Shown: positions 2,267-57,412, numbered from the stretch's first letter. The stretch is DNA of 64,000 nucleotides from a virus (IMGVR_UViG_3300021420_000014); one strand, 5' to 3'. The notes: a model not told the origin generated them from the letters alone. Translations and numbers: made by a program.

Positions 2267-2739
2267 GCCGGCACGGTCGTGCCACGATTCCCATAGGCCA
2301 ATACAAAGGCAGTAAGGTAGCTGCACTACCAGACCAATATTTACTTTGGCTTCTTGAATCCGTCTATGCCAGCAGTCCGAAATGGCATTGGCTTATAGAA
2401 AGTGTCAAAGCAGAACTGCGCCATCGAGGCTTTCATCCAGACAATGTTGTGCCGGAACCGCCACCTACGTTCAGGATACGGTGCACAAATTGCGCCCAGC
2501 TTTTCGAATCAACCTACCAGCGTCCTGTTTGCGACTCATGCAAGGCTATTATCAGAAGCGGACTTACGACGATCGGTGCTACGCAAAAATGTGTTCACTG
2601 CGGTCACTATCTGCATCCGGATGTGGATTGCAGAGCCCTGGATGCAGCCGGCGATGTTTGTAATTGCTCTAATTCTGAGCCGATTGGCCTGCCCAAAGTG
2701 GCAGACTTTGTGAAGCCGCGGCGTGTGATTTTGCTCTAA
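2263..2739 (+). CDS. DUF3820-like N-domain plus Zn-finger motifs; PRR tail
   Basis: IGQYKGSKVAALPDQYLLWL; several CxxC; ends VKPRRVILL. Confidence 0.6.
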   Translation: MSRHGRATIPIGQYKGSKVAALPDQYLLWLLESVYASSPKWHWLIESVKAELRHRGFHPDNVVPEPPPTFRIRCTNCAQLFESTYQRPVCDSCKAIIRSGLTTIGATQKCVHCGHYLHPDVDCRALDAAGDVCNCSNSEPIGLPKVADFVKPRRVILL

Positions 2740-2967
2740 TAACATTGGCATTATTTGACTTATCTTATGGTTTACCCATACACTCCAGTTACATGTCTGG
2801 TAATAACGGCCCCAAGCCGCTTTTCTCTGCGGAAGACCGCAAAAAAATTATCAATCTTTTATTGTCCGAAAGTATCAACGCAGCGGCGATCGGCAAACGC
2901 TTCGGTGTTTCTGCTCAGACCATTCGGCGCATCCACTGGGAATATCTTTTAACCAACGACAAGCGCA

Positions 2968-3624
2968 TTGCAGATAACGGAGATGTTCGAAATGGCAGCC
3001 AAAAACGCAAATGATTCATTGCTCTCTGACATTGATTTTGAGCCCATCGAGGATATTAAGCCGGACAGAAACAATCCCAACAGGCATACGCCGCGCGGCA
3101 AAAAACTTTTGAAGTCTTCACTCAAAAAGTTTGGGGCCGGCCGATCGATATTGCTCGATGCTGAGAATCGCGTGATCTCCGGGAATGCCACCTTTGAGCA
3201 GGCCAGACAGTTGGGCTACAAAAAAGTCATGGTGGTGGACTCTGATGGCGATACGCTGGTTGCCGTACGTCGGAAAGATCTCAATCTTGAAGGTGACGAC
3301 AAGAAGGCTAGAGAACTGGCAGCCCATGACAACAGAGTTGGGCAGGTTGACCTGGAATGGGACACCGACATCTTGAAGAGTACGGACGTCGACCTAACGG
3401 AACTATTTGAACCAATCGAGTTGGACAATCTTCTGAACGACGGCAAGGGCAGAAAGCGAATCGACAAAATCGATCTGCAGCCTCCTCCCAAGATGATTTG
3501 GATCCTTTTGGGCGTTCCATTCAATCGTTTCGATGAAATTCAGCCACACTATCAGGCACTCGAAGCTATCAGCGATATCAGTGTTCAGCAGGCAAGGAAC
3601 GCAGAGGAAGAAAAGAAATCTTGA
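2968..3624 (+). CDS. ParB/Srx N-terminal domain protein
   Basis: IKPDRNNPNRH, SLKKFG, ISGNAT, DNRVGQ; start uncertain. Confidence 0.75.
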   Translation: MQITEMFEMAAKNANDSLLSDIDFEPIEDIKPDRNNPNRHTPRGKKLLKSSLKKFGAGRSILLDAENRVISGNATFEQARQLGYKKVMVVDSDGDTLVAVRRKDLNLEGDDKKARELAAHDNRVGQVDLEWDTDILKSTDVDLTELFEPIELDNLLNDGKGRKRIDKIDLQPPPKMIWILLGVPFNRFDEIQPHYQALEAISDISVQQARNAEEEKKS

Positions 3625-3923
3625 GCGTATATGTCGATGCATCGCTTTATCCACTTGGTCGCATGATCATGTGTCATTTGTTTGCTGACACTACGGACGA
3701 GCTCAATCGGATGGCAGATGCGATCGGCATCGCCCGCAAGTGGATACAGTATCCCGGTACGCCGAAAGAACATTTCGATATTTCTAAGTCTAAGCGGGCC
3801 TTGGCCATCATGAATGGCGCAATCGAATTAACTTCCGCACGCTCATTGATCGCCATTATTCGCAGGAAAGCTAAGGCATACTCCCTTCCGTCCGAAGTAA
3901 CCTTGCCAATCAGCGGTTATTAA
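3621..3923 (+). CDS. DUF4031 family protein
   Basis: VYVD...MCHLFADTTDEL...HFDISKSKRALAI..GA. Confidence 0.8.
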   Translation: MSVYVDASLYPLGRMIMCHLFADTTDELNRMADAIGIARKWIQYPGTPKEHFDISKSKRALAIMNGAIELTSARSLIAIIRRKAKAYSLPSEVTLPISGY

Positions 3924-3926
3924 TAG

Positions 3927-3955
3927 TTGACATATCGTACCTACTAAGCTATAAT
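3927..3955 (+). promoter_or_regulatory. sigma70 consensus promoter
   Basis: TTGACA-N17-TATAAT, followed by hairpin TGTTAGTGC/GCACTAACA. Confidence 0.9.
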
Positions 3956-4010
3956 GTTGCTGTTAGTGCAAGACCGATCTAAGCACTAACAAAACTGAGA
4001 GGGAGTTCTA

Positions 4011-4959: not shown

Positions 4960-6546
4960 ATGCAAACTTCGTTTTTAGAGCGTTTTCGTGCTGCTCGTAG
5001 AGTTAGTACCCCGCTCATTGCAATTCGCACGGCGGATCCTGCCGCAACGGTCGCCGATATCGCCAGAGATAAGGCTCAGGTTGCGGCCATGATCCTGTGG
5101 GATTCCGTCTCAGGCATAGTGGGCGTCAACGAACCGGACGGTAAAAACGTCGTCCGGCAACTGGTAAAACCAAACCGTGACCGTGATAACGATGAAGATC
5201 GTCTGGAAGATCCTTTGGCTTTCCTTGTGAAGATAGCTGCGAAGGAAGCAACCCCGAGAGGCACTATAATCTTTGCATACAACCTGAATCTCTTCTTTAA
5301 CGATCATCGCGTCATACAGGCGGTTTGGAACCTTCGCGATAAACTCAAACAGGAAAATAAGACTTTGGTCCTGCTTTGCCCGTCCATCACTTTGCCTCCG
5401 CAGCTGGCGCAAGATGTATTGATTCTGGACGAACCACTTCCGGACGCGGCTGGCCTGGCAGCTATTGTGGGCGAAATGTATTTGGCAGGAAATCTTCCAT
5501 CGCCGAAACAGGAAATCCTTGAACGTGCCGTCGAAGCACTCTCCGGCCTCGCAGCTTTTCCCGCAGAGCAGGTTACGGCCATGAGCATCACCGAAAAGGG
5601 CCTTGATATTGAAAGCTTATGGGAACGCAAACGCCAGCAAATCGAAATGACGCCTGGCCTGAGCATCTGGCGCGGCAAGGATGACTTCAAGAGCGTTGTC
5701 GGGCTCGATAACGCCAAGGAATTTCATCGCCGTCGCGGCATGGGGCCTTTGCGGCGTCGCACCATCGTATTCATTGACGAGATCGACAAGCATATGTCCA
5801 ATTTTGGCGCGATCGGCACCGGAGATACCACAACCGAAATGGTTGGCACTCTTCTGACAGACATGGAAGAAACCGAAGCAGAAGGGAGTGCGTTCCTCGG
5901 CGTCGCTGGAGCCGGCAAAACATTACTTGCTAAAGCGATTGCCAATGAGTGGGGGGTCCCGTTGATCTTCTTCGATCTGGCCGGCATGAAAGCTTCGCAC
6001 GTCGGCCAATCGGGCGAGAACATTCGCAATGCCCTGAAGGTGGTCCATGCCGTAAGTCAGGATCAGGTGTACTACATCTGTACGTGTAATAGATTCGATT
6101 CGTTGCCGCCGGAGATGCGACGCAGGTTTAGATCTGGCACGTTCTTTTTCGATCTGCCGACCAAACCGGAAAAAGAGGCGGCTTGGAAAATCTACCAGGA
6201 GAAATACAAGATAGAGGGACCGCGGCCAGACGATTTAGGCTGGACCGCTGCAGAAATCCGCAATTGCTGCTATAACGCGCATGTCTTGGCATGTCCGCTA
6301 GTGGACGCGGCCAAGTATATCGTGCCCATTTCCGTTTCCTCTGCGGATAAGATCAAGGATCTTAGACGACAGGCAGATGGAAACTTTATTTCTGCCACCT
6401 ACTCCGGTCTATATCATGCGCCGGAAGGTATCGAACCTGAGCCAGTACCAGATATGGTTGTAGCGATCGGAGTCATTCCAGCCAAGCCGAGACGCAAGAT
6501 CATGCCTGAACCTGGTAACGGCGGCAAAAAAGAGCAGGTGAATTAA
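4960..6546 (+). CDS. Ycf46-like AAA+ ATPase with permuted Walker A/B order
   Basis: IVFIDEIDK, GVAGAGKT, CTCN sensor, LPPEMRRR, FFFDLP, GWTAAEI. Confidence 0.85.
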   Translation: MQTSFLERFRAARRVSTPLIAIRTADPAATVADIARDKAQVAAMILWDSVSGIVGVNEPDGKNVVRQLVKPNRDRDNDEDRLEDPLAFLVKIAAKEATPRGTIIFAYNLNLFFNDHRVIQAVWNLRDKLKQENKTLVLLCPSITLPPQLAQDVLILDEPLPDAAGLAAIVGEMYLAGNLPSPKQEILERAVEALSGLAAFPAEQVTAMSITEKGLDIESLWERKRQQIEMTPGLSIWRGKDDFKSVVGLDNAKEFHRRRGMGPLRRRTIVFIDEIDKHMSNFGAIGTGDTTTEMVGTLLTDMEETEAEGSAFLGVAGAGKTLLAKAIANEWGVPLIFFDLAGMKASHVGQSGENIRNALKVVHAVSQDQVYYICTCNRFDSLPPEMRRRFRSGTFFFDLPTKPEKEAAWKIYQEKYKIEGPRPDDLGWTAAEIRNCCYNAHVLACPLVDAAKYIVPISVSSADKIKDLRRQADGNFISATYSGLYHAPEGIEPEPVPDMVVAIGVIPAKPRRKIMPEPGNGGKKEQVN

Positions 6547-6842
6547 TGGCGCGCGCGTTCCTTCATCAATGGGAAGTTCGGAGCCATACAGGTGATGATG
6601 TTTATAAGGTGACCGAGTACTTAGACGGCACATGGGCCTGCGCATGTCCACGGTGGAAGTTTTGCAAAGCCCCAAAACTGGATTGTAAACATATCCTTGG
6701 CGTCAAGGCCGAAGAACCACATCAGGCAATGCCGATCACGCAGATGCAGGAACAGGCACGGCGACAGATGATACGGCCACCTGAGCCTACATCGCATCCC
6801 GTGTTTGTTTTGCAAACTCGTCGTGTCATTCAATTGGGTTGA
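6546..6842 (+). CDS. SWIM zinc-finger protein, tagged tail
   Basis: WACACP...CKHI; ends TRRVIQLG. Confidence 0.75.
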   Translation: MARAFLHQWEVRSHTGDDVYKVTEYLDGTWACACPRWKFCKAPKLDCKHILGVKAEEPHQAMPITQMQEQARRQMIRPPEPTSHPVFVLQTRRVIQLG

Positions 6843-6848
6843 CCAAAA

Positions 6849-7229
6849 ATGATTACAAAAGCGTGGAGGTATCCGAACGGCACGATTGAATTTGGTATTG
6901 TAACTCTTCGTGGCCCAGCCAATTTAGTTCGCGCTAACCAAGATGGTACTTGGCAATGCGATTGCTCAGGCGATCCACCAAAAATCTGGACACCGACCGC
7001 AAAGTTCGGTCCAGGTCATCCTTGGATAAAGCCGGCGTGTGAACACATTGCGGAGGCGTTTGTGCATCACCGGAAAGGAGAAGGCAGGAGAGAACAACTC
7101 ACAGCGGAAGCTAAGCACAGCGCGGAAGTAAAGAAACAGTATGACGAGGAAATGAAGATCAGACGTGAAAAAGACGACACACCGATGGCGGAATTACGGC
7201 CAAGAAGAAAAATCACATTCGACAAATGA
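6849..7229 (+). CDS. SWIM-like zinc-finger protein, tagged tail
   Basis: WQCDC...CEHI; ends LRPRRKITFDK. Confidence 0.65.
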   Translation: MITKAWRYPNGTIEFGIVTLRGPANLVRANQDGTWQCDCSGDPPKIWTPTAKFGPGHPWIKPACEHIAEAFVHHRKGEGRREQLTAEAKHSAEVKKQYDEEMKIRREKDDTPMAELRPRRKITFDK

Positions 7230-7245
7230 AAGAGAGGGTAGCTAT

Positions 7246-7650
7246 ACGAGTCACACCTCGGACATAGAATTAGAAGTCACGGACATCAACTGCCTAGAGG
7301 ATGCCGTAAAAAGCATCCCTGGGCTGGAATTCCTGCGCGGCCAAAAAACGTTCAAGCAGTTTGGTGGCCAGCAAGGTCGCTGCGATCATGCAATTCGCGT
7401 AGCAAATAACAGCCGTGCGTTTGAAATAGGGGTCTCCGAGACAGGCAGGCCTGGTCGCCACAGATTGCAAACCGATTTTTATGGTGGCGGTTACGGGCTC
7501 GAAGAACTTGTTGGTCCAAACGCTAACAAACTGAAGCAAGCATACACCGTCGCCTATTCCAAGAAGCAATGGAAGAAGAAAGGCTTCAAGGTTCGAACAA
7601 CGGTCGACGCGCAAGGCTTTATCGACGTCATAGCCACGCGACGAACATAA
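7246..7650 (+). CDS. DUF1257/Ycf35-like protein (probable ACG start)
   Basis: SHTSDIELEVTD..CL..A, FEIGV, KLKQAY, GFKV; RBS GAGAGGG 7 nt before ACG. Confidence 0.7.
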   Translation, partial: TSHTSDIELEVTDINCLEDAVKSIPGLEFLRGQKTFKQFGGQQGRCDHAIRVANNSRAFEIGVSETGRPGRHRLQTDFYGGGYGLEELVGPNANKLKQAYTVAYSKKQWKKKGFKVRTTVDAQGFIDVIATRRT

Positions 7651-7668
7651 GTTGCGAGGTGACTTAAG

Positions 7669-8052
7669 TTGGTCTACACAATTTCTCCGCTTGAGTTCGG
7701 CGAACGCCGCGATATCCGCGGGAGACGCATTCCTATCTATGTAGATGCCGATGGGCAGATAGGATGGACGCTTTGTAGCGGTGGAGCAGCGTTTCGTGTT
7801 TTGCGCACTGCCGATCACATGTGGATTTGCAATTGTCCGAACGGACAGGTGAACGGTCGTCGAATAGTTGGCGATCCAGTATGCGATCACATAACGACGG
7901 TTCCTCAGAGTCCTGCGTACGCAAATAGTGAATATCTAAATCAGCTCGACGGTCTGATTCGAACTGAACAACAGATCGTCTCTCGAAATGAGGCACGAAA
8001 GGAACGAGAAGAATACGTTCTACGGCCACGACGAATAATAAATCTCAAATAA
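7669..8052 (+). CDS. SWIM-like zinc-finger protein, tagged tail
   Basis: WICNCP...CDHI; ends LRPRRIINLK. Confidence 0.65.
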   Translation: MVYTISPLEFGERRDIRGRRIPIYVDADGQIGWTLCSGGAAFRVLRTADHMWICNCPNGQVNGRRIVGDPVCDHITTVPQSPAYANSEYLNQLDGLIRTEQQIVSRNEARKEREEYVLRPRRIINLK

Positions 8053-8061: not shown

Positions 8062-8256
8062 ATGGCAGAGGAAATCGTACGAATCCGCGTTTCGCCCGAA
8101 GGCAACGCGACTATCAGCGTCAAGGGCGTGAAGGGAAGATCATGCAAGGAACTCACAAAGACTTTTGAAGAAGGCCTTGGAAAGGTGGTGAGCAGTGAAA
8201 ACACAAGCGAAATGTATGAAAAAGAAACAGAGGTTCAGATTAAGAATAGGGCCTGA
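8062..8256 (+). CDS. DUF2997 family protein
   Basis: ISVKGVKGRSCKELTKTFEEGLG..TSEMY; GGAG RBS. Confidence 0.8.
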   Translation: MAEEIVRIRVSPEGNATISVKGVKGRSCKELTKTFEEGLGKVVSSENTSEMYEKETEVQIKNRA

Positions 8257-8283: not shown

Positions 8284-8595
8284 TTTGTTGACCTTAGACC
8301 AAAACGCTGCGACGAACTCATCCAAGGTTACCTAACGGCTGTTGGCCATACCTGCGATACGCCATTGTGCATTCAGCCTGAGCACCTTATTGAAGGTACT
8401 CAGAAGGAAAATATACATGATTGTGTAGTACGCGGGCGGGCCAGGAACGGCAACATTAAATTAACTCCAGAGAAGTGGGACGCAATTAGAAAATCGACAA
8501 AATCTCACACAGCCATAGCCAAAGAATACGGAATCAGTCGTCACCAAGTCGGCAGAATAAAGCGAGGAGAAAGCGGGAGGGTTTATAACCCATGA
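8284..8595 (+). pseudogene. degenerate HNH homing endonuclease with C-terminal HTH
   Basis: HTCDTPLCIQPEHLIEGTQKENIHD; in-frame TAG at 8281 and no start upstream of the HNH core. Confidence 0.6.
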
Positions 8596-8864
8596 CTACG
8601 TATCGTATGCGCATCGCTCCGAATGGAAAGATCTTTGCACTCTACGATGACATCTTGGCCGATCTATTCCCTGACAGCCAAATGACTATCAAGCGGGCTA
8701 GCTTCGTTGAGCCCACGCCATCCGGCCGATGGATTGCAGACATGTCGCCAGCGGTCAAGCGATTCAACTTGAACGTCGATAACCCGATATTAGGACCTTT
8801 CACCACTAGATCGGCAGCGCTAGCTGCCGAACATAAGTGGTTGTTAGCCAAGTTGTTTACATGA
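8592..8864 (+). CDS. conserved hypothetical of AAA/DUF1257/DUF2997 clusters
   Basis: IKRASFVEP..GRWIADMSP...LGPF..RSAALAAE. Confidence 0.65.
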   Translation: MTTYRMRIAPNGKIFALYDDILADLFPDSQMTIKRASFVEPTPSGRWIADMSPAVKRFNLNVDNPILGPFTTRSAALAAEHKWLLAKLFT

Positions 8865-8961
8865 TTTCGCGTGAGCGAAACGGCGGACACAACCAAATCC
8901 GATCTGAAGCCCAGGCCCCAAGGTAGTGTCCGCCGATTTGAAGCAAAAGGGAGAATCAAAA

Positions 8962-10044
8962 ATGAGATCAGCACAACGTAGTGCAATCCAGAAGTCAGCA
9001 GCACAGAAGGCTTGGGAGACTCGCAAGAGGAACCGCAGCAATCCGCCACTGCCGCCAAAAAAGACAATTAAACTGCAACCATTGCCGGCGATCAAATTGC
9101 CGACGAATCCGGAACTTGTTTCGCCCGATCAGATCATGGCGCGCACCTGCGTTATGGTCCTCACTTTCCATGGCATCGGCAATCGCCGCAAGGTGGACAC
9201 TGACAACATAGAAGTCAAGTCAAGTGACAAGCGCGCCGCAGCCAAAGAAAGCGAAGTGGACAAGGCGTGGTTACACCTGACGAAGCGGCTGATCGAAGCG
9301 GAAGAACTAGACAAGATCACGTCCAGCTACGGTGAGATGCGCCGGTACGTTGAGAACTTGGCTTTGCCGTCGTACATTAAGCGCGGCGTATACATCATGC
9401 CGACCGCATTCGTGATGCAAGTGGACGCCAAACTCAAGGAAGGCACTGCGACCGTTCAACCATTCATCAAATCGCTCGGCAAACGCTACGAAGCCATCAA
9501 AGCAGAATCTCAAAAGAGGCTCGGTCCCCAATATAACGAGGCCGACTACATGACCAGAGAACAACTGATGGCTGCCTTTCAAGTGTCGTGGCGGTTCCTT
9601 TACGTGGATAGCGCACCGAACTTGGCCGGTGTATCAAAGGAAATCTACGAAGAGGAACGCCGAAAAGCGCAGCAAGATTGGGCAGATCTCGCCCAAGTTC
9701 ACAGACAGATGCTTCGCAGCCACATGTCGGAGTTCGTCAATCACTTGGCAGATAGGCTTGCGCCCAACGAAGAAGGCCGGCTCAAAATGTTCAAAGAAGG
9801 CTCTGTCACGAAGTTCCAGCAGTTTTTGGAAAACTTCGAGCCACGCAATATCGGCAACGATCTTCAAATGAAGGTTCTTGTCGATCGGGCAAAACAGTTG
9901 CTCACCGGCAACGACGCCGAGTCTTTGCGAACCAACGACGAACTGCGGGCACATGTAAGGCAAGGTTTTGAAAACATCAAAGCCGCCCTAGACACGATGG
10001 TTGTTTTGAAACCGCGACGGATCATTACATTTGACAGATCGTAG
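8962..10044 (+). CDS. DUF3150-like protein, tagged tail
   Basis: KRLI, ALPSYIKRGVY, RLGPQYNEADY, helical C-half; ends LKPRRIITFDRS. Confidence 0.6.
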   Translation: MRSAQRSAIQKSAAQKAWETRKRNRSNPPLPPKKTIKLQPLPAIKLPTNPELVSPDQIMARTCVMVLTFHGIGNRRKVDTDNIEVKSSDKRAAAKESEVDKAWLHLTKRLIEAEELDKITSSYGEMRRYVENLALPSYIKRGVYIMPTAFVMQVDAKLKEGTATVQPFIKSLGKRYEAIKAESQKRLGPQYNEADYMTREQLMAAFQVSWRFLYVDSAPNLAGVSKEIYEEERRKAQQDWADLAQVHRQMLRSHMSEFVNHLADRLAPNEEGRLKMFKEGSVTKFQQFLENFEPRNIGNDLQMKVLVDRAKQLLTGNDAESLRTNDELRAHVRQGFENIKAALDTMVVLKPRRIITFDRS

Positions 10045-10059: not shown

Positions 10060-10478
10060 AAGAGAGTGTAGAGCCATGAGAAAGCCGGAGCCATTTGCCA
10101 AAGTAAAAGTGGGGCCGGGCCAACCGGCCCCGCGGCGTTTTAAGACACTGGTGGATGGCAGTGAATTGGTTGCTTTGTACAACGAGTCGAATACGATGTG
10201 GGACATTTATCTGGATGGCTATCGAATCGGATATGTCAAACACAGAATGGAGTGGCTGGCACTCCTTCAGTTGGGGGCACGATTTAATCATCGCGTGATT
10301 GGCAAATTTGTGCGATGGCAGGATGCGGTCAATCACGTAATCACCACATTTCTGGCTCATCGGGCAAATTGGTCGGCCAGTAAGGCTCACCTATTTTTTA
10401 GCAAGGCTGTGAAGTTAGAAGATGTCGAGCAGGAACAGGTACCGCGACGCCGCTAAGTTCGCAAAAGGGAGAATCGAA

Positions 10479-11336
10479 ATGGGAGCGCATACCGTTTGGA
10501 AGGGACATTTGTCTTTCGGCTTGTTGAATATCCCGGTACGGTTGTACGTAGGAGCCCGGGACAAACGCGTTGAACTGCATACCTATCACACCAAATGCAA
10601 TGGTCCGGTCAAAGAACCGAAGTATTGCAACGCCTGCCAAGAGATGCTGGCTCCGGAACAAATCTACAAGGGCTATGCAATCGACGGGAAGATCGTTCAG
10701 ATTACCAAAGAAGAGATCGAACAGCTTACGCCAAGCAGCGGAAAAGTGTTGGAGATTACAGAATGCGTCAAGTGGGCCGACGTCGACCCACTCTATCTGG
10801 CCGAATCCTTTTATTTACTGCCAGAAGATGTCGGCCGCAAAGCCTACGGTCTCCTCGTCAAGACGCTCACCGATACTGGCCGTGTCGCCATTGCTCAACT
10901 AGCCAAGTCAGGCAGGGAGAACGTAATTCTCTTGCGGCCCAAAGGCAATGGGCTGATCGTTCATTACATTTGGTATCCGACAGAGATTGCAAGACTCGCT
11001 GAATTCGAAGATCTGGAAGCGGTCGCGTTCACAGCGTCCGAACTGAAATTGGCACGACAACTGGCCGAAAGTTTCGATTCCGAATTCAATCCCGAGATAT
11101 TCGAAGATGGCTACTACATGCGCTTAACTCAATTGATCGAATCCAAGCTGGACAAGTCGGTCCAGGCACCGCAAGCGGTCAATGTTGCAGTCGCTCCTCC
11201 GGCCCAAGATCTCATGGCCGCGCTGTCTGCTTCACTCGCTACTCCCAAGCCGCGTCGGTCGATCAAGTTGAATGCTGAGCCAGAGCCGGCGAAAGTTGCT
11301 GAAAAAACCAAGGGCAAGAAAGGCAAGGCGGCCTAA
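10479..11336 (+). CDS. ku: Ku (NHEJ DNA end-binding protein)
   Basis: WKGHLSFGLLNIPVRLY, IYKGY, VDPLYL..SFYLLP, KAYGLL, DLMAALSASL, Lys-rich tail. Confidence 0.93.
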   Translation: MGAHTVWKGHLSFGLLNIPVRLYVGARDKRVELHTYHTKCNGPVKEPKYCNACQEMLAPEQIYKGYAIDGKIVQITKEEIEQLTPSSGKVLEITECVKWADVDPLYLAESFYLLPEDVGRKAYGLLVKTLTDTGRVAIAQLAKSGRENVILLRPKGNGLIVHYIWYPTEIARLAEFEDLEAVAFTASELKLARQLAESFDSEFNPEIFEDGYYMRLTQLIESKLDKSVQAPQAVNVAVAPPAQDLMAALSASLATPKPRRSIKLNAEPEPAKVAEKTKGKKGKAA

Positions 11337-12520
11337 TGAGTCATTATGCGGTCCTAGTTATAGGTGACGATCCTGAAGGGCAGTTGGCTCCATTCCATAA
11401 GTTTGAGAGTACTGGCGACGATAACCAGTACGTTCAAAACATAGATCAAACCGAAGAGGCTCGCGCTCAATACACTGAGCACACCACCACGCGATACCGT
11501 GATCCAGAGGGAATACTTCACAATCCTTATACAGAAGAAGGTAATGCCAAGCCACAGTTTTGGCGCGATCCAACGCCAGAAGAGATAGCGGAGCACGGCA
11601 AAATGTTTGGCTCTGGCTTTGGCGGTGGTATCCGCTGGCTTTCAACAGATTGGAACGACGGCCTGGGCTACCGTGCCAAAGTTTTCCAATTGCCGGAGGG
11701 CTGGAATGAAGTTGAGGTTCCGACTCCCGAAGCAGAGACACTCGCCAAGTTTGTTGAAGGCTGGTATGGCCATAAAGTTGTTCCCTTTGGCGAACAGCCT
11801 GACCTGGTTGGCAAACACAAATACGGCTACACGCTGGTAGATTCGGGCGGCACAGTCGTGAAAGTTGTTGATCGCACAAACCCAAACAAAAAATGGGATT
11901 GGTATTCGGTAGGTGGCCGCTGGACCGGCTATTTCAAATTGAAAGCGGTTGGCGTTGGCGTCCTGGGCAAACCAGGAATCCAAGCAATAGCTTCAGATTA
12001 CAAAGCACCTGAGAGAGACCGCGCCGATCTGTGCCGGAAATGCGACATAGACATCGAGGGAATGCGCAATGAAGCAGAAGAAAAGGCAGCAAGAAAATAC
12101 GATCTAGTGTGGTCGATCATAGGAGCACACCAGCGTCCTCTAACCTGGGAGGAAGTAAAAAAACTTCATCAAAACGGTGTCGATGGGAAAGGTAGACCTA
12201 ACGTCGATTTTGACGCCGCTAGAAAATACTACAATCAGCAACCTGCGGTAGTCGCGCTTCGTGAAAACGAAACGGCAACATGGTATGAGGTGGACGACTT
12301 TCTGGTAGCGCGTGAAGAGTATTTGCGCCGAGCACGCGCCGGGGCTCTGACGACGTTTGCAGTCATCAAAGATGGCCAGTGGTACGAGCGAGGCAGCATG
12401 GGCTGGTGGGGAGTCGTCTCGAACGAGGAAGACCACGACGAATGGAATATCAAGTTCGCGTCTCTGATCGATGGACTGCCAGACGATACGATTCTAACGA
12501 TTATTGATTGCCATATCTAA
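11336..12520 (+). CDS. conserved phage hypothetical protein
   Basis: MSHYAVLVIG, NPNKKWDWYSVGGRW, G.WYERGSMGWWG, IDCHI. Confidence 0.7.
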   Translation: MSHYAVLVIGDDPEGQLAPFHKFESTGDDNQYVQNIDQTEEARAQYTEHTTTRYRDPEGILHNPYTEEGNAKPQFWRDPTPEEIAEHGKMFGSGFGGGIRWLSTDWNDGLGYRAKVFQLPEGWNEVEVPTPEAETLAKFVEGWYGHKVVPFGEQPDLVGKHKYGYTLVDSGGTVVKVVDRTNPNKKWDWYSVGGRWTGYFKLKAVGVGVLGKPGIQAIASDYKAPERDRADLCRKCDIDIEGMRNEAEEKAARKYDLVWSIIGAHQRPLTWEEVKKLHQNGVDGKGRPNVDFDAARKYYNQQPAVVALRENETATWYEVDDFLVAREEYLRRARAGALTTFAVIKDGQWYERGSMGWWGVVSNEEDHDEWNIKFASLIDGLPDDTILTIIDCHI

Positions 12521-18982: not shown

Positions 18983-19759
18983 ATACGCCGAATCATTAAA
19001 AATCGATGCCCACACTGCGGCCGTATTCGCGGCACTGGCCATACATGTCCCACATTCAACTGGCGATTCAAAGACCTAACAGGCAGGAGATTCTCTAGGC
19101 TTACCGTAATATCTTTAGCCAAAGAGAAAAGGCGCAATCAATTAACGTGGGTATGCGTGTGCACGTGCGGCAACAAGATCATCGTTACCACTGGAGATCT
19201 AAAAACTGGCAACACTAGAAGCTGTGGATGCATAAGGCATAAAAACATAGCTGGCGAACGCTTCGGATTATTGATTGCGATAAAACGCGATGGTTACATC
19301 CGGAGGCACAAGGCTTGGTTGTGCAAATGCGACTGTGGCAACGAAACGCGTGTTCCATACGGCCGTCTTACTGCCAGAGCGGTAATTAGCTGTGGCTGTC
19401 AGAGAGGTGGCCACAATAGACTTCCTAATCATCTAGCACGCAGGCGAAGAATTTTTTACCACTATCATAGATGGAGTGCACGGCTAGGAAGGCCGTTCCG
19501 CCTTAGCTTTAGGCAAGTAGACCGCCTTATTAAAAAGTCTTGCTATTACTGCGGCCACAAAACCGATGTTTCATCCGGACACTTTAATGGCATAGATCGA
19601 GTAGATAACACCATCGGATACGTTGCTGCAAATGTGGTGCCATGTTGTTGGCAATGCAATCGAATGAAAGGCAAGTTGTCACACGACGACTTCATCGCGC
19701 GGTGTATTCAGATAAATAAATTACACAAGGGAGAATTAAATGAAATCAATAATACTTGA
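18983..19759 (+). CDS. HNH-type homing endonuclease (start uncertain)
   Basis: two DLTG.RF..L...W.C.C.CGN...SCGC repeats; CYYCG, GIDRVDN, NVVPCCWQCNRMK. Confidence 0.85.
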   Translation: MRRIIKNRCPHCGRIRGTGHTCPTFNWRFKDLTGRRFSRLTVISLAKEKRRNQLTWVCVCTCGNKIIVTTGDLKTGNTRSCGCIRHKNIAGERFGLLIAIKRDGYIRRHKAWLCKCDCGNETRVPYGRLTARAVISCGCQRGGHNRLPNHLARRRRIFYHYHRWSARLGRPFRLSFRQVDRLIKKSCYYCGHKTDVSSGHFNGIDRVDNTIGYVAANVVPCCWQCNRMKGKLSHDDFIARCIQINKLHKGELNEINNT

Positions 19760-20834
19760 GTATTCAGATTTAGGCGTTGGTGGATCAAGTCATAAAGAAT
19801 ATAGGATCCACCTGCAGAAGGCACAAGACGGCTACTCGATAACATTTGAATTCGGCAGACTTGGTTCAACACTTCAGACAGGTAGTAAAGCCCAATCGGT
19901 CCCTCTTGATGAAGCGGAACATATTTTCGACCGTCTGGTTGCCGACAAGATGCGCAATGGCTATCAGCCAGTCAAGAACGGCTCGGCCCAGGCCCCAGTG
20001 CCGGTGCCTATCGCCGCGCTTGGTGCGCGCACGCCCTTTCCAGCTGAACTGCTCGAAGAGATCACCGAAGAACAACTTGCCACCTACATGGAAAGAGAAG
20101 ATTACTGGATAGAACTCAAGGCAAACGGGCAGCGCCGCCAAGTCCAAAAACTCGGTCCAGGCAAGTACACTGGCTTCAACAAATTGGGCACGTCTGTCGC
20201 GCTCCCTGCTCCATTGGTCAACGATCTGGAGAGGTTCGACGCCAAGACGTTCTTTATCGACGGCGAGCTCATCGGGGACGACCTGATCGTTTACGACCTA
20301 CTGGAGATCAACGGCAAAAATATCTCTATGCTTCCCTATCGGGACCGCTGCGAACATCGCGCCAAACTTATTCCACGCAAACAGCAGCGGTCGCACGTGG
20401 AAATTATCTCTACATGGAAAACGAAGATGCAAAAACGCATCGGCTTCCGTAGCGTCCAAGAAGCCAGAGCGGAAGGCATCGTGGCGAAATTCATTCATGC
20501 CGTTTACCAAGGCGGCCGACGAGGAGATCACAAAAAATTCAAATTCACCAAGATGGCTACCTTCAAAGTGATTCGCGTCGGAGACAAGGGCCACAACAGT
20601 GCGACCGTCGCGTTACTCGACAATGGCAAATGGCGCGAGATGGGCCGTGCCAGCTTAATTGGAAAGGATAAGAGAATCTGTACCGGCTCATTGGTTGAAA
20701 TTCGTTTCCTTTACGTGCAGGGCGAGAACGGCCGGCTTTACCAGCCGCGAATCATCGGGCTACGAACGGACGTCAATGAAAGCGAGTGTACGATGGCGCA
20801 ATTAAAAGTAGCCTACAAAGGTGCTGTGTCCTGA
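19740..20834 (+). CDS. WGR domain plus ATP-dependent DNA ligase
   Basis: FGRLG/KMRNGY WGR; ELKANGQR motif I, IDGEL, YDLLE, EGIVAK, KFK, OB-fold PRIIGLRTD. Confidence 0.88.
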   Translation: MKSIILEYSDLGVGGSSHKEYRIHLQKAQDGYSITFEFGRLGSTLQTGSKAQSVPLDEAEHIFDRLVADKMRNGYQPVKNGSAQAPVPVPIAALGARTPFPAELLEEITEEQLATYMEREDYWIELKANGQRRQVQKLGPGKYTGFNKLGTSVALPAPLVNDLERFDAKTFFIDGELIGDDLIVYDLLEINGKNISMLPYRDRCEHRAKLIPRKQQRSHVEIISTWKTKMQKRIGFRSVQEARAEGIVAKFIHAVYQGGRRGDHKKFKFTKMATFKVIRVGDKGHNSATVALLDNGKWREMGRASLIGKDKRICTGSLVEIRFLYVQGENGRLYQPRIIGLRTDVNESECTMAQLKVAYKGAVS

Positions 20835-21258: not shown

Positions 21259-21498
21259 ATGGAGACGGCCAAACGCAAACGCAAACTGGTTGAGGCTCAG
21301 GAGATGGTCAAGGCCACGCTCAAGCGTATCCGTCGCCTGAATACGTCGCTCAAGAATTGGGAGCGGCGCGCCAAGATGCATGAGAAGGCACTGGCAGCAG
21401 AGGAAATTGCAGCATTGCACCGTAGGATCGCGGAGCTAGAACTGCGGCCACGGCGAATCATACAATTCGAGAAAACGGAGACTAAAAATGATGGGTGA
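21259..21498 (+). CDS. basic coiled-coil protein, tagged tail
   Basis: ends ELRPRRIIQFEKTETKNDG. Confidence 0.6.
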   Translation: METAKRKRKLVEAQEMVKATLKRIRRLNTSLKNWERRAKMHEKALAAEEIAALHRRIAELELRPRRIIQFEKTETKNDG

Positions 21499-21886: not shown

Positions 21887-22840
21887 ATGAGCCAATCCAA
21901 AATAGATTTTCCTCAACCCTTGACGGAACGGTACAGGCCCAAGCGAGTTGCAGACTTTATCGGCCTCATCAAACCCAAAAAGATCATGGAAGCATTCGTA
22001 CATAGGCCATTCGATGCTGCTTTCTTATTTGTTGGGCAGTCGGGCGTAGGGAAAACCACGTTCGCCATGGCCGTCGCCAACCAAATTCAGGCGGAAACAC
22101 ATTTAATCCCGTCACGATCTTGCGATCTAGAAATGGTCGAGACTGTCACGAGGATGTGCTATTTCGCCGCATTTAATTTTACAACAGGCAAACCAGCGGC
22201 TTGGCACGCAGTAATCTGTGATGAAGCAGATCAAATCACTAATGCCGCTCAACAGGCCTTCCTGTCAAAGCTGGATGCAACAGCCAAACCACCTAGCACG
22301 GTGTTCTTTTTTACTTGCAATAGCACGGCAACTTTAGAAGATCGGTTCCTCTCTCGCTGCCGCATATTGCCATTTGAGCGCGACACACTTGAAGGTGAAA
22401 TAGAGCATTATCTACGGCGAATTTACAAGAAGGAAGGTGGACGACATCCACTAGATTTTGAGGCCATAGCAAAGGCTTCATCTTACAATGTGCGCGACGC
22501 ACTAAATAAGATAGAAATGGAACTGATGATTGGTACTGATCGAGACGATCTGCCTTCGGAGGATATTAAGATCGTCGAAAATCATACTCATTCATGCCCG
22601 AAATGCCACCAGGGATACAAGCATAACGACCCACTTTGTGAATTGCCTTTTAGGCATATTTGCGAGCCGTGCGGTGGAGCAAAGACGATCGGAACTCTTA
22701 GGGCACAAAAGGCCTGGACGACAATTAGGAAGAACATAGCTGAAGAAATTGAGCGTGAGAAAGGGGCCAAGCCATGCCGTACCTTGCCCAACCGCTCCTT
22801 GCCGCGCCGCACCCGGGCACGCCTGACCCCAACAAGCTAA
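21887..22840 (+). CDS. clamp-loader-like AAA+ ATPase (DnaX/RFC-like) with Zn finger
   Basis: LTERYRP, GQSGVGKTT, ICDEAD, SRC motif, RDALN. Confidence 0.85.
   Translation: MSQSKIDFPQPLTERYRPKRVADFIGLIKPKKIMEAFVHRPFDAAFLFVGQSGVGKTTFAMAVANQIQAETHLIPSRSCDLEMVETVTRMCYFAAFNFTTGKPAAWHAVICDEADQITNAAQQAFLSKLDATAKPPSTVFFFTCNSTATLEDRFLSRCRILPFERDTLEGEIEHYLRRIYKKEGGRHPLDFEAIAKASSYNVRDALNKIEMELMIGTDRDDLPSEDIKIVENHTHSCPKCHQGYKHNDPLCELPFRHICEPCGGAKTIGTLRAQKAWTTIRKNIAEEIEREKGAKPCRTLPNRSLPRRTRARLTPTS
22764..22828 (-). repeat. GGY-NN period-5 tract (13 units)
   Basis: ggtCA ggcGT gccCG ggtGC ggcGC ggcAA ggaGC ggtTG ggcAA ggtAC ggcAT ggcTT ggcCC. Confidence 0.8.
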
Positions 22841-34910: not shown

Positions 34911-35630
34911 GTTTCCCTGCGATCGAGCGGCTCCTCAACGTCGTAAGCAAACGGCACAAGGTCCAACTGCAAGCGGCTCGCAACGAACGGGAGGCTGCGC
35001 AGGAGTTGCTGGAAGCAGCCAAGAAGATGGTCATGTGGTCTTGGACACTGCCATTGGCAGACCGTGAAGCGGATGTCTGGAAGCCACTAGACGAAGCCAT
35101 TGCCAAAGTAGAGAGCTTCCGATGATCTTCACTTGGCTAGACGATCAGATACTCGCTGGCTGCACCAAGTTTGCACACTGGACTCAGAGCAGCTTTGGCA
35201 TTACCAATTTCCGCATCGCCAAGTTCGGAAGGTTTCTCTGTTTTGTTTGGTTAGCTCTCAAGATCATCAATCGCTTCCGTCGATTCATGGCCATGCCAAC
35301 CTATGGCATGGATCTTTTCATGGCAATTATTGTTGCGCCACTGATGGCATGGGAAGGTTCGCTATGTGATCGAGCCGAGCACAGCCTCTATAATTCGGAC
35401 GCCTTAGATATTCATAGGTTGTTGCAATTTAGTGGTCGGCCTTGGCGCTTGTTGTGGCTCGTTATGTTTGCCTTGGATGCTGCGGTTAGGGCATCTGGGA
35501 TGCTCTTCAGTTTTGGCTGTCTCCTATTTTTCTACTTCATTACAGTCATACCGCTTCCACCTGGCCGCAGCAAAATTCGCGAATGGCTGCGCAATTTCTT
35601 TGTCCGGCAAGTACCGGCGACCGAGAAGGC

Positions 35631-36986
35631 ATGAAGCAGGACGACACACCGAAGCTGCCGCACAATCCCGACGCGGAGCGTTCCGTGCTTGGTGCCGTCT
35701 TGCTCGACAACAATACGCTTGCCACGGTCATTGAGAAGCTGAAAGCGGAACATTTCTTTGACGATCGGCACCGCCGGCTTTTCACTCATATCGTGCAGCT
35801 TGGCAGCGCGCATGAACCGATTGATCTGGTAACCCTTACAGACCATCTTCGATTGACCGGGGAGCTTGAGGTCTGCGGCGGGCCTGGCTATGTCTCACAG
35901 CTCATTGATGGCGTCCCGAGAATCAGCAACATCGGTAGATATGCCTCTATTGTGCTGGATTTAGCTATTAGACGGTCTACGGCGTACGCAGCGCAATCTA
36001 TCCTAGCCGAGGCCTTAGAGGGAGGAAGCGACGCTCAGCAGCTTCTGGAGCAAGCCCAGGCGGCTTTTACAGCTCTATCCGACACCCAAACAAGCAAAGG
36101 TCTCGTAGGAATCCGGCGGCTGATTCCGGAATATAGCAACCGAGTCGAAACAATTCTGAAAGAGGGCCGCAGTGTAACCGGTCTGTCGACTGGCTACAGC
36201 ATGTTAGATGCTTTGACGTCCGGCCTTCAACCTTCGGAGCTGATCATTCTGGCTGCGAGGCCCTCGGTCGGGAAATCGACACTTTCTCTTAACATCGCCG
36301 AGAATGTTGCAGTCCAAGGCCTCGGCCCAATCGCTATCTTTAGCCTGGAGATGGCAGTGGATTCACTGCTTACGCGCCTTCTTACTTCTCGCGGACGCAT
36401 TGACTCGCACAAGCTTAGGACAGGTCACCTTCGCCGCGAGGATTGGACCACAATCGCACAGGTCATAGGGGAAATGATGGCATGGCCTATCTCTATAGAC
36501 GATTCCTCCTCAGCTTCGGTGATTGACATTTCGGTACGGCTGGCGCGTATGAAGCGAGAGATAGGTTTGGCCTTGGTCATTGTCGATTACCTTCAATTGG
36601 TATCACCGAGCAAGGGTCACAAAAACCGTCAAGAGCAAGTGTCCGAAATATCGCGTGGCTTGAAAGCTTTAGCCAAGGATCTGGGCGTCCCTGTAATCGC
36701 ATTGAGCCAATTGTCGCGAGCCCCGGAGCGTGAGGATAGGCGGCCGCAGCTTTCTGACTTACGCGATTCTGGATCGTTGGAACAAGATGCAGACACAGTG
36801 ATCTTTATTCATCGGCCTTACCTGTTCAAGACCAAAGGCGAGATCTCGGACGAGCAGAAGGCGGAAACAGAAGTAATTGTGGCTAAACAGCGCAATGGGC
36901 CTATCGATATCGTGCCGTTTGTTTTCCTGGCAAAAAGTACGCGTTTCGAGGAAGCGATGGGATCATGGATGGGAGAACAGGAATGA
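35631..36986 (+). CDS. dnaB: replicative DNA helicase
   Basis: PHNPDAERSVLG, AARPSVGKST, VDYLQL, LSQLSR, SDLRDSGSLEQDAD, KQRNGP. Confidence 0.96.
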   Translation: MKQDDTPKLPHNPDAERSVLGAVLLDNNTLATVIEKLKAEHFFDDRHRRLFTHIVQLGSAHEPIDLVTLTDHLRLTGELEVCGGPGYVSQLIDGVPRISNIGRYASIVLDLAIRRSTAYAAQSILAEALEGGSDAQQLLEQAQAAFTALSDTQTSKGLVGIRRLIPEYSNRVETILKEGRSVTGLSTGYSMLDALTSGLQPSELIILAARPSVGKSTLSLNIAENVAVQGLGPIAIFSLEMAVDSLLTRLLTSRGRIDSHKLRTGHLRREDWTTIAQVIGEMMAWPISIDDSSSASVIDISVRLARMKREIGLALVIVDYLQLVSPSKGHKNRQEQVSEISRGLKALAKDLGVPVIALSQLSRAPEREDRRPQLSDLRDSGSLEQDADTVIFIHRPYLFKTKGEISDEQKAETEVIVAKQRNGPIDIVPFVFLAKSTRFEEAMGSWMGEQE

Positions 36987-53210: not shown

Positions 53211-53211
53211 A

Positions 53212-53937: not shown

Positions 53938-53940
53938 TTT

Positions 53941-54812: not shown

Positions 54813-54815
54813 AAA

Positions 54816-55352
54816 ATGAAAAAGAAGAAACGGTATGTCCCGGTTGATGGCGCACATATTTCTACCGCCGAAGCCAAGAAGGTCGGCTTGGCTGTCGATC
54901 GGCTCATCAGCAAACTCGGCCGGCTGCCCACCACCGCGGAGTTTGCCGTGGCGAGCAGAATCAAAACCAGTCCAGCCTATCCCGTAGTCTTCAAGCGGTT
55001 CCGACAACTGACCGCGAGCGCGTGGGAAAACGCTGCCGCCTACTGCATTCGCAGCGTCGATATCGTTTGGATCGATGGTGCTGGCCGTCAATCGCTGCCG
55101 GAAAAGGCATTTTTCGTTTTGAGTTTGATCGAGGAAGCCAGGATCGACGACGAAAACGGCCACGCAACCATTTATCCAGTCGAGGATGCGCAAAAAAGTC
55201 CGGCCGCGATTGCTGCGCAAGAGTTAGCGATGCGCAGAACCGTGATGGCAGCAGTCGGCGACTTCGCGTCGCTCGCAGGTTTTGCAAAAGCACGCGCTGC
55301 GGCGATTCGAGCGATTGACGATTTAGGCGGAAGGGGCGGTCGCGCGGATTGA
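54816..55352 (+). CDS. accessory protein embedded between arrays
   Basis: GGAG RBS; KVG..VDRL...G.LPT..EF...SR...SPAY; loses the period-5 pattern. Confidence 0.7.
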   Translation: MKKKKRYVPVDGAHISTAEAKKVGLAVDRLISKLGRLPTTAEFAVASRIKTSPAYPVVFKRFRQLTASAWENAAAYCIRSVDIVWIDGAGRQSLPEKAFFVLSLIEEARIDDENGHATIYPVEDAQKSPAAIAAQELAMRRTVMAAVGDFASLAGFAKARAAAIRAIDDLGGRGGRAD

Positions 55353-55362
55353 AAATGATTTT

Positions 55363-55610
55363 CCGAAGCAGCGCACTGCCAAGCGCTGATTGGCTAAGCG
55401 TAGAAAAGCACTGCGCGGTAAACCAAACCAAACTCCATGCGAAGCATAGATTGACGCGGCGATGAGAAGCACAGCGAGGCGATGCGTAGCCCTGAAAGAC
55501 GCGGCAAGTCGAAACGTACTCGGTGCTGTGAGAAGCATGGTGCAGCGATGAGTAGATTAGCCGAGCAGGGATAAGCGAAGAATAGCGTAGTGAAGCGAAC
55601 CGCACTCAGA
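55363..55610 (+). repeat. AGC-NN period-5 array 2
   Basis: agcAT ggtGC agcGA tgaGT agaTT agcCG agcAG ggaTA agcGA agaAT agcGT agtGA agcGA. Confidence 0.8.
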
Positions 55611-55612
55611 GC

Positions 55613-57412
55613 TTAACGGTATTTGTGAAGGTCGATTATTCTGCGGCCACCGATCGGTGAAGCTTCTGGCTGTCCTGTTGCAAAACGTTGGAATCCGCAA
55701 TGCCCACATCGAAGCTGGTCGGCAATTCTCGTTTGTAGCGTTACCTCATGGCACTTTGGACATTTCGGTGTTCGATCGTTGGTGGCTACAGCCGCTAGGT
55801 TTCCGGCCTCGGTTGTTTTTAGCATGGTGATTTGCTCCGGTGCTCCTACCTTGAACCAGTCGATTAAGCCCAATGTTCCGGGCCCAATCAGTTCGGTCAC
55901 AGCAAACACCATAGCGTCTAACCGGTTCGGCGATCGTTCACCTGGCATACCTGTGTAGGATACCAGCTCTTGCTCAAGTAATTCCATCTCGCCGACAATA
56001 TGGCACCGGTTGTGTTCAGACAAAGAACTCACCGGTTGCGCGCGAATCAATTTGCCGCGCGATGAAGTCACATCCCGATAGGGAATATTTTCGTCTACGG
56101 TTTTGAGGGTCTCAGCCACCATATCACCGCCAAAGTTGCGTTCTGCCACTATCAGGTCGGCCTTGCATTTCTCAAATAGTCGTATTGCAGTTCCTGCCCA
56201 GGCCTTCGGCCTTGACGCGAACATGGATTCATCAAATAAAACATAAAACTCTTGGTCATAGCCCTCGCCTGCCGCCACAATTCCCACTTCGGTCGTCGTC
56301 GATCCCGATGGGTCAATCGCCACCACGATCCTGCGATATCCGTCCGGAAATGCCGGTGCCTCTTTTGCTTCTGGATATTTCGCCCTCAAGTCCGGCGATA
56401 TGGTAAATCGGTGTTGCTGCCGGTCCCAAAAATTCGCTGATAAAACTCTGGAGTCGTCCAATACTTTCCGCGTCCAGAGCGCGTTTGGTATTTCGTCGCA
56501 ATCAAGCGCTTCGATCTCTTGCATGAACGCCACTTTATTCATGTTCCGCTCGGCTCTGTCTATTCCTTCTGACGAAATGAACGGATTCGCTCTCGAGGAA
56601 AAATGCAAACATAGCCATTCGTTATCAGCCTGGCACCGCTTGAACATTTTTGCGGCGTGCTGTTTGTCTTTGGCTTTGCTGATCGACTTCGTAGCCAAAG
56701 ATGGCGGCGTATAAATCAATACCGCATCGCCATCTTTGTCTATCATCATGGGTTGACCAACTTCGGTCCACGCTGTCTCGTCCATCAGCTGGTATTCATC
56801 CAGGATCAAAAGTGTGCACCAGTCTCCTCTTAATGAATCCGCATTCCATGCGGTCTTTCCTTTGATCCTATTGTCAGTCCCTCGAAATTCAATCACATGC
56901 TCGGTCTCGTTTTTGTATACCCTCCCCGCATTGATCAGTTCCCTCAAACTCCACGTTACTTCTTTCCACCATTTGTCTAATTGGTCCACCACAGGCACGG
57001 CATACAAAACTCTTCCTCCATTCGCAAAATGATTTACGGTCAAAGTGGCAGAACTAGTAGTTTTCCCTGCTCGTCTTCCCGCTCGTACCATCTTCCGTTT
57101 CTTCGGCGATTCCACCAGCAGCTTCTGCTCCGGAAATCCGTCCACGTTCCGTACATGAATCGGACACGGATCCCCTTGCGCCCCTTTCACTAATTCTTCA
57201 ACCAGATCGTTCGCTTCTTTTGGCTCAGGTGCAGGCGGAATCAATAACTCTAATCTCGTCTTGTGACACCGGAAGCAATACGCCGTCTCCATGTTGTCAC
57301 TCGACCACGCATGCGAGGAATGCTTAGGACACTGGTAATAGAGCCGCGGCTTGCCTCCCTTTGGCTTCGGCGGCTGCACCACAGGCGGTTTGCTTTGTTC
57401 TTGGCTTTCCAT
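55613..57412 (-). CDS. terL: terminase large subunit with terminal Zn ribbons
   Basis: AGRRAGKT Walker A, LRG, LILDEY Walker B, TPP, nuclease AIDPS, ERNFGG, K.IRA, NRLDA. Confidence 0.92.
   Translation of the reverse strand: MESQEQSKPPVVQPPKPKGGKPRLYYQCPKHSSHAWSSDNMETAYCFRCHKTRLELLIPPAPEPKEANDLVEELVKGAQGDPCPIHVRNVDGFPEQKLLVESPKKRKMVRAGRRAGKTTSSATLTVNHFANGGRVLYAVPVVDQLDKWWKEVTWSLRELINAGRVYKNETEHVIEFRGTDNRIKGKTAWNADSLRGDWCTLLILDEYQLMDETAWTEVGQPMMIDKDGDAVLIYTPPSLATKSISKAKDKQHAAKMFKRCQADNEWLCLHFSSRANPFISSEGIDRAERNMNKVAFMQEIEALDCDEIPNALWTRKVLDDSRVLSANFWDRQQHRFTISPDLRAKYPEAKEAPAFPDGYRRIVVAIDPSGSTTTEVGIVAAGEGYDQEFYVLFDESMFASRPKAWAGTAIRLFEKCKADLIVAERNFGGDMVAETLKTVDENIPYRDVTSSRGKLIRAQPVSSLSEHNRCHIVGEMELLEQELVSYTGMPGERSPNRLDAMVFAVTELIGPGTLGLIDWFKVGAPEQITMLKTTEAGNLAAVATNDRTPKCPKCHEVTLQTRIADQLRCGHCGFQRFATGQPEASPIGGRRIIDLHKYR

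Follow-up and report, generated by a model that had tools for sequence, protein, structure and literature searches.

Nine proteins encoded in a 64,000-nt stretch (hereafter the window) of the 165-kb soil phage genome IMGVR_UViG_3300021420_000014 carry a common C-terminal short linear motif, here called the tag, with the core R-x-I-x-(L/F). Within the window it usually takes the form (L/V)-x-P-R-R-x-I-x-(L/F)-(D/E) and lies 4 to 25 residues from the protein end. Since the same tag is the conserved tail of a gene cassette built around a Cdc48/Ycf46-like AAA+ ATPase, it most likely addresses all nine proteins to one common partner. We put at about one half the probability that this AAA+ module reads the tag as a docking or addressing peptide.

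A six-frame scan for [PT]RR.I returned 11 matches in the window, eight of them in long plus-strand open reading frames (ORFs), and all eight fell within the last 30 residues. Allowing G in place of P added the large terminase (TerL) on the minus strand, giving nine carriers with [P/T/G]-[R/K]-R-x-I-x-[L/F/P] inside the last 30 residues. Scan and translations thus agree with an initial annotation of the window, which had listed nine such C-termini by what prove to be their gene starts. The C-terminal enrichment it had implied was also recovered. Among 134 proteins (20,417 residues), the pattern [PTG][RK]R.I.[LFP] matched nine times, each time in the last 30 residues, compared to a mean of 0.33 matches anywhere and 0.04 in the last 30 residues over 300 composition-preserving per-protein shuffles (C-terminal maximum, one in 300 shuffles).

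All carriers except TerL are encoded on the plus strand. Furthest upstream is a 158-aa protein (2263-2739; tag PRRVILL, 2716-2736) with a QSregVF_b-like N-terminus, a Cys-rich Zn-ribbon middle and the end ..KPRRVILL*. The ATPase itself, a Ycf46-like two-tier AAA+ protein of 528 aa (4960-6546), ends in ..KPRRKIMP followed by 14 aa (tag PRRKIMP, 6487-6507, 16 residues from the end). Three small SWIM-like proteins come next, of 98 aa (6546-6842; ..QTRRVIQLG*; tag TRRVIQL, 6816-6836), 126 aa (6849-7229; ..RPRRKITFDK*; tag PRRKITF, 7200-7220) and 127 aa (7669-8052; ..RPRRIINLK*; tag PRRIINL, 8026-8046). They are followed by a 372-aa DUF3150-like protein (8926-10044, with the true start perhaps 12 codons later; ..KPRRIITFDRS*; tag PRRIITF, 10012-10032) and a bacterial-type Ku of 304 aa with a Pfam Ku match (10422-11336), in which ..KPRRSIKLN precedes a further 20 aa (tag PRRSIKL, 11250-11270). 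A coiled-coil-like protein of 79 aa upstream of the clamp loader gene (21259-21498) ends in ..RPRRIIQFEK plus 8 aa (tag PRRIIQF, 21448-21468), and TerL (55613-57412, minus strand; Terminase_6C) ends in ..GGRRIIDLHKYR* (tag GRRIIDL, 55648-55628). The tags therefore sit on the AAA/Ku gene block, one clamp-loader neighbour, one upstream protein and TerL, and the term "phage-wide" used in the initial annotation is not supported.

The Arg-Arg pair is spelled differently between carrier genes (CGG CGT, AGA CGC, CGA CGA, AGA AGA and others). Because these codons differ from gene to gene, we could exclude a DNA-level origin of the tag, be it a DNA repeat or a Shine-Dalgarno sequence (AGGAGG, which reads Arg-Arg) translated in frame at gene ends. 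Paralogy was likewise ruled out as the source of the common tag: all-versus-all BLASTP of the carriers detected similarity outside the tag only among the proteins starting at 6546, 6849 and 7669, which are weakly similar SWIM-like paralogues sharing CxCxnCxH. The earlier description of the carriers as mostly unrelated is therefore accurate for six proteins without detectable mutual similarity and has to be corrected for these three, so that the tag marks seven independent protein types, not nine.

Conservation of the tag was assessed in the one close relative of the phage, IMG/VR UViG_3300021420_000018 (124 kb; hereafter G001). All nine G001 orthologues (27–83% identity) retain the tag, including that of the 158-aa protein, which ends in ..RPRRAISLD* although the alignment covers only residues 1-109. 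The orthologues of the three SWIM-like proteins end, in gene order, in ..QTRRLIHLD*, ..RPKRKITLE* and ..NPKRKINLEED*; Ku carries ..KPRRTIKLD.., the coiled-coil-like protein ..RPRRLIHLE* and TerL ..IGGRRAIDLRK*. Over the nine pairs, the seven-residue tag core is 73% identical, compared to 48% over the preceding 20 residues. None of the nine pairs differs at the central Arg or Ile; changes are confined to x positions or to R/K and F/L swaps, and 27 of the 46 identical core residues are spelled by different codons. Together with the differing Arg-Arg codons in the window, this confirms that selection acts on the tag at the peptide level, as had been proposed. G001 additionally encodes four tag-ending proteins without a homologue in the window.

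The tag also characterizes two whole protein families. The ATPase family comprises at least 1,370 proteins with tails of variable length and sequence, nearly all of which contain (R/K)-R-x-(I/F/L), as in ..PKRKINTGG...VN* or ..GRAI(S/T)LEE*. In an alignment of 113 ATPase homologues, the second Arg of the tag (R512) forms one of only 22 invariant columns. Homologues of the DUF3150-like protein end in ..KP(H/S/R)R(R/S/A)I(x)(L/F)(E/D)(D/E); here, the second Arg (R365) is one of 14 columns invariant across 24 homologues, and at least 90% of these retain I367. We then scanned one genome per species and obtained 441 ATPase relatives, with locus statistics taken from the best 80, mostly from Acidobacteriota. 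In these loci the strict tag was found at 47 C-termini (18 expected), 44 of which belong to the DUF3150-like protein, and the ATPase's own version of the tag was present in 75 of 76 loci. As these two proteins carry nearly all tags there, two tagged proteins are the usual state. The initial annotation's idea of a docking code that recruits proteins to a hub thus holds insofar as the tag behaves like a shared addressing tail linked to the AAA cassette, being the invariant tail of its ATPase and DUF3150-like families.

Besides these two tagged proteins, the cassette contains DUF1257, DUF2997 and a protein of ~90 aa, and it was found on phages, plasmids and prophages; in the window copy, the SWIM-like genes are interspersed. 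As previously indicated, the window contains DUF1257 and DUF2997, both untagged, on the plus strand and adjoining the ATPase. The Ycf35-like DUF1257 protein (~7246-7650, start approximate) gave no direct Pfam match and was assigned via 706 relatives and the proteins of two Logan contigs, L021 and L022; it is 45% identical to the L022 protein, which has a weak PF06868 match, and the 706 homologues start at residue 5-6 of the ORF beginning at 7234. DUF2997 (64 aa; 8062-8256) matches PF11211 with an E-value of 1e-15. The ~90-aa protein (8592-8864, plus strand; ..NPILGPF..) is untagged as well and has homologues at the same position in G001, L021, L022 and the Candidatus Manganitrophus plasmid. 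Downstream lies the helical DUF3150-like protein with its R-x-I/F-x-L/F tail; its homologues match PF11348, the window protein itself gives only a sub-threshold Pfam match to DUF7181, and it is homologous to the annotated DUF3150 of the Manganitrophus plasmid operon. On that plasmid, the AAA ATPase, DUF1257, DUF2997, DUF3150 and an 84-aa gene form one tight operon, and tagged tails occur on the ATPase, on DUF3150 and on an 847-aa protein further down. The cassette with tags on the ATPase and at least one neighbour was further found in L021, L022, the JGI contig L017 and the Tunturiibacter phage Tunturi_3, as well as in the Corndog-like mycobacteriophage Firecracker and the Rhizobium phage L338C. 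In L021 and L022, two or three further proteins are tagged, Ku among them, and the L022 homologue of the first SWIM-like protein ends in ..QTRRRIVFED*.

Profile searches with DUF1257 and the DUF3150-like protein against PDB sequences gave no match, and the partner proteins received neither a family name from NCBIfam nor a defence-system match from PADLOC. Our literature search found no mechanism for DUF3150, DUF1257/DUF2997 or Ycf46 and no published description of the tag. A Burkholderia ambifaria plasmid (NZ_CP086300.1) encodes a distant DUF3150-like protein (163305-164234) whose gene is flanked by those of a MoxR-type ATPase and a VWA protein and whose tail is without the tag; DUF3150-like proteins thus pair with two kinds of AAA+ ATPase. 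This gene also adjoins a PRTRC (ThiF-family) cassette and a type IV secretion system. Between DUF2997 and the ~90-aa gene, the window contains a 76-aa ORF resembling helix-turn-helix/HNH proteins (8365-8595), which is absent from this place in L021 and L022 and is therefore probably a small mobile insertion in the cassette.

The number of tagged proteins per element rises from three on the Manganitrophus plasmid and four each in L021 and L022 to nine in this phage and ~13 in G001. In this lineage the tag was added to at least seven further proteins, namely Ku, TerL, the three SWIM-like proteins, the Zn-ribbon protein and the coiled-coil protein. By these sequence comparisons, the tag is the ancestral tail of the ATPase and DUF3150-like families and has spread to more proteins in this lineage. 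TerL illustrates how a client is made. Alignments with TerL homologues from 210 cultured phages nearly all end near residue 510-517, with one reaching 566, and the TerL of the window continues into a C-terminal Zn-ribbon extension of ~85 residues that is common to G001 and ends in the tag; this extension is a lineage-specific addition. In Ku, the conserved core spans residues 23-272 (NCBIfam Ku_bact), with the tag directly beyond it and before a Lys-rich end, and the L021 Ku tail reads ..NNRAIRLEGE... Ku and the ATPase occur together in this phage, G001, L021, Corndog-like phages and further contigs; in Tunturi_3 and L338C, the cassette and tags are present and the Ku domain is absent. As a separate observation, the G001 TerL is a 967-aa open frame (contig positions 46149-49052) with ~310 extra residues between the positions that correspond to residues ~508 and ~501 of the window TerL, an insert that looks like an intein. 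Inteins are also found in some ATPase homologues (P0171, P0192; Intein_splicing/LAGLIDADG).

The spelling of the tag differs between lineages, and the tails of the ATPase and the DUF3150-like protein do so in step: RKFRF goes with RAFR or RSFRE in Bryobacterales, TRAISFEEE with TRAFG in Armatimonadota and LITFEE with RTITL in Nitrospirales, while this phage uses P-R-R-x-I. Such concerted spelling fits a reader that is encoded by the element and co-evolves with its tails. The nearest cellular relatives (Terriglobia, Bryobacterales) and the cultured relative Tunturi_3 suggest that the phage infects Acidobacteriota.

The ATPase matches the Pfam family AAA (PF00004), gives weak matches to CdvC and CDC48 in NCBIfam and, in PADLOC, only generic P-loop matches to IetA; a metagenome scan with this protein yielded five weak loci only. 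Its AlphaFold2 (AF2) model has a predicted local distance difference test (pLDDT) score of 92, with a flexible tail (residues 490-528, pLDDT 50-67). In this monomer model the protein's own tail is predicted to be unstructured and no cis-docking was seen. The modelled fold aligns over both tiers with the D1D2 ATPases p97/Cdc48, Rix7 and NVL, and its N-terminal part aligns with a cyanobacterial ycf46 cluster at a template modelling (TM) score of 0.83. The model thereby shows a Ycf46-type architecture, an AAA-like N-terminal tier and one predicted active classical AAA domain. The core order looks permuted (5677-6167), as the Walker-B-like ..VFIDEIDK.. precedes the Walker A ..GVAGAGKT.. and the sensor 1 ..TCN directly follows helix 2. 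This order is conserved in the 113 homologues, with D273, E274 and K320 invariant, and the AF2 model still reaches the above pLDDT.

From these results we infer that the tag docks its carriers on the AAA+ module. The tail would insert, probably as a short beta-strand, into one receptor site, which may be part of the ATPase ring or of the partner proteins DUF1257 and DUF2997, and the invariant Arg and Ile/Phe side chains would make the contact. In this way, DNA-end and DNA-packaging proteins could be brought to, remodelled by or released by the ATPase. We count in favour of this reading the C-terminal enrichment, the selection at peptide level, the family origin, the cassette linkage, the in-step spelling, the flexible ATPase tail and the variable client set. 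Several points weigh against it. Our analysis yielded neither a receptor nor demonstrated binding for the tag; the co-variation of spellings was assessed by visual comparison, with shared descent as a confounder; and the Ku of Firecracker is untagged although this phage has the ATPase. The docking model must moreover explain the ATPase's own tag, whether by autoinhibition, ring-to-ring contact or docking on a third partner. In this lineage, that tag (R-K-I-x-P/T-G) has no second hydrophobic residue and precedes another conserved end, ..VN*, which means that it may be read differently from the client tails. A complex prediction with ATPase residues 1-495, DUF1257, DUF2997 and the C-terminal 38 residues of the DUF3150-like protein scored 0.11 (mark, 0.32), which speaks neither for nor against binding.

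A serious alternative, which differs from docking mainly in the events after recognition, is that the tag serves as a substrate or degron handle. The Cdc48-like ATPase would then grip and thread tagged proteins, for example to take Ku off sealed DNA or to release TerL, with its own tail acting as a pseudo-substrate brake. The modelled resemblance to substrate-threading two-tier unfoldases, the flexibility of the tails near the C-terminus and the co-occurrence of Ku and the ATPase in several phages and contigs are all consistent with this possibility, and eukaryotic p97 extracts trapped Ku from DNA. Nevertheless, we consider it doubtful, given that AAA+ pore engagement is usually sequence-tolerant, yet Arg and Ile are near-invariant here; that the universal carrier is the DUF3150-like protein and not Ku; that Tunturi_3 and L338C have the cassette and tags without Ku; and that no protease partner was found. 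The same two phages bear on a role of Ku as the hub, in which repair and packaging factors would be brought by their tails to Ku bound at DNA ends. Eukaryotic Ku-binding motif (KBM) tails, as in APLF, XLF and PAXX, are C-terminal and basic then hydrophobic and may resemble the tags, which in the window cluster around the Ku gene with a WGR-domain ligase nearby. However, since Tunturi_3 and L338C carry the cassette and tags without Ku, and both are also found in Acidobacterial prophage loci, the presence of the tag does not depend on Ku, and Ku as hub fails. Ku is itself tagged and, to our knowledge, bacterial Ku proteins are without the von Willebrand factor A (vWA) domains that read KBMs, which makes this explanation improbable.

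Three other receptors appear even harder to reconcile with the data. The tail could mimic the IXI tail of small heat-shock proteins (sHSPs), as the likeness to IbpA pointed out in the initial annotation would imply, and occupy the beta4-beta8 cleft of the alpha-crystallin domain in a host sHSP. IXI tails bind this cleft as strands, and their sequence is R-I-x-I (PMC10708888). The likeness to K-P-(P/R)-R-I-E-I is, however, superficial, as the tag (R-x-I-x-L/F) is out of register by one residue and drifts to R-K-F-R-F in other lineages, unlike IXI. Moreover, no HSP20 domain was found in the carriers or in the 124 kb of G001, and the linkage to the AAA cassette would be unexplained, so that we regard an sHSP receptor as quite improbable. 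The chance is very small that the target is a beta clamp, loaded by the phage clamp loader, to which the tails would attach DNA-handling proteins. Shared C-terminal clamp motifs are a classical precedent, the clamp loader adjoins one carrier (21259-21498) and Corndog-like phages with the cassette encode a beta clamp. By contrast, the tag is without Gln and matches neither QL[SD]LF nor Q-L-x-L-x-L, and no DnaN domain was found in G001. Related elements also place canonical clamp tails on other proteins: in prophage-like elements with the cassette (loci L025-L104, from Acidobacteriota and other genomes), ..QLSLF* ends a ~750-aa protein, ..LSLFD.. occurs in a ~175-aa protein, and a ~150-aa protein resembling single-stranded DNA-binding protein (SSB) terminates in ..(E/S)IPF*, beside the R-x-F/I tag, which is therefore a signal separate from that of the clamp. 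Finally, the tail might dock proteins on the portal or procapsid, such that Ku and others are packaged or placed at the packaging vertex. TerL has its tag at the extreme C-terminus, and terminase C-termini contact the portal; however, a plasmid without obvious viral character also encodes the core carriers (the ATPase and the DUF3150-like protein), the other carriers lie among early and DNA-metabolism genes, and TerL is tagged only in this lineage. Targeting to the portal or capsid is accordingly a very faint prospect. A tag without any function, produced by chance, by common descent of the carriers or by a translated DNA repeat, could draw only on the three SWIM-like paralogues. It is refuted by the shuffle test, the differing codons, the six other carriers without similarity outside the tag, and the retention of the tag in every G001 orthologue and across hundreds of homologues, and we assign it practically no weight. 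A Clp_N domain, also considered in the initial annotation as a docking partner, was not found in G001.

Among known systems, the closest are the Ycf46/Ycf35 (DUF1257)/DUF2997 genes of cyanobacteria, plastids and mobile elements, which share the N-terminal part of the ATPase as well as the neighbouring DUF1257 and DUF2997; the phage and plasmid form adds the DUF3150-like and ~90-aa proteins. Proteasome-docking tails (HbYX of PAN/Rpt/Cdc48/Blm10, GQYL of Mpa and Bpa) may offer an analogy, in that an AAA+ ATPase and unrelated non-ATPases share one C-terminal peptide. HbYX and GQYL carriers are all addressed to one receptor, and HbYX occupies the last three residues with a penultimate Tyr. In contrast, the tag is based on Arg and Ile, has 4-25 residues between the invariant Arg and the end and no penultimate Tyr, and no protease ring was found. 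A comparable analogy may be drawn to the MIT domain of Vps4/CdvC reading the MIM tails of ESCRT-III and to the p97 N-domain reading VIM/VBM/SHP, where several partners bear a short terminal motif read by a classical-clade AAA+ ATPase. Unlike these, the phage ATPase has neither an MIT domain nor a double-psi-barrel N-domain, its first tier is AAA-like, it is itself tagged, and the motif sequence is unrelated. Clamp tails (QL[SD]LF; T4 gp45-binding) and the ..DIPF tails of SSB are likewise C-terminal hub-docking peptides on unrelated DNA-metabolism proteins of one genome. The tag differs from them in sequence, and its coexistence with them in related elements makes it a third, separate code. The sHSP tail (IbpA-type ..KP(P/R)RIEI..) also has Pro-Arg followed by alternating hydrophobics near the C-terminus, and is set apart by its shifted register and by the absence of an alpha-crystallin domain from the carriers and G001.

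The principle of one terminal peptide that brings unrelated proteins to one hub is already known from the proteasome, the sliding clamp, SSB and ESCRT/Vps4, all of which are organised by such shared peptides; what is new is a variant of this logic on a widespread, uncharacterised machine. The window adds Ku and TerL to the clients, and related elements place the tag beside canonical clamp and SSB tails. A bolder version, which we put forward tentatively and consider rather unlikely as a whole, is that the ATPase, DUF1257 and DUF2997 form a programmable remodelling hub that gains clients through an eight-residue C-terminal address co-evolving with it. In this phage, the hub would service DNA ends by loading, bridging or stripping the ring-shaped Ku and the terminase. 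If true, it would represent a prokaryotic counterpart of p97-driven Ku removal and provide a first mechanism for ycf46 and ycf35, orphan genes of cyanobacteria and plastids. In practical terms, the tag is an experimental handle, as a peptide of 8 to 12 residues should retrieve the receptor, and the tagged proteins name the clients, which (Ku, terminase, SWIM proteins) suggest a function at DNA ends. The Corndog-like mycobacteriophages and Tunturi_3 have the cassette and are in culture, which allows testing.

Elsewhere in the window we observed a WGR-domain ATP-dependent DNA ligase (19740-20834), which recurs beside the ATPase in other phages, an RFC/delta-prime-like clamp loader (21887-22840), a ParB-like protein (30500-31990) and DnaB (35583-36986). 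Together with Ku, these proteins constitute a phage-borne end-joining and replication set. The gene directly after Ku (11336-12520) encodes a 394-aa protein of phrog_10079, a family of at least 1,829 proteins (45-61% identical) without a Pfam domain. A profile built from 30 homologues gave no match in the PDB, and the single-sequence fold reached a pLDDT of only 33. The family has an invariant N-terminal M-S-H, a C-terminal D-C-H-I* and many invariant Gly, Trp, His and Asp residues. We had considered this protein as a hidden sliding clamp and dropped the idea because the invariant His/Asp/Cys pattern is enzyme-like; by its conserved residues, it looks like an uncharacterised enzyme.

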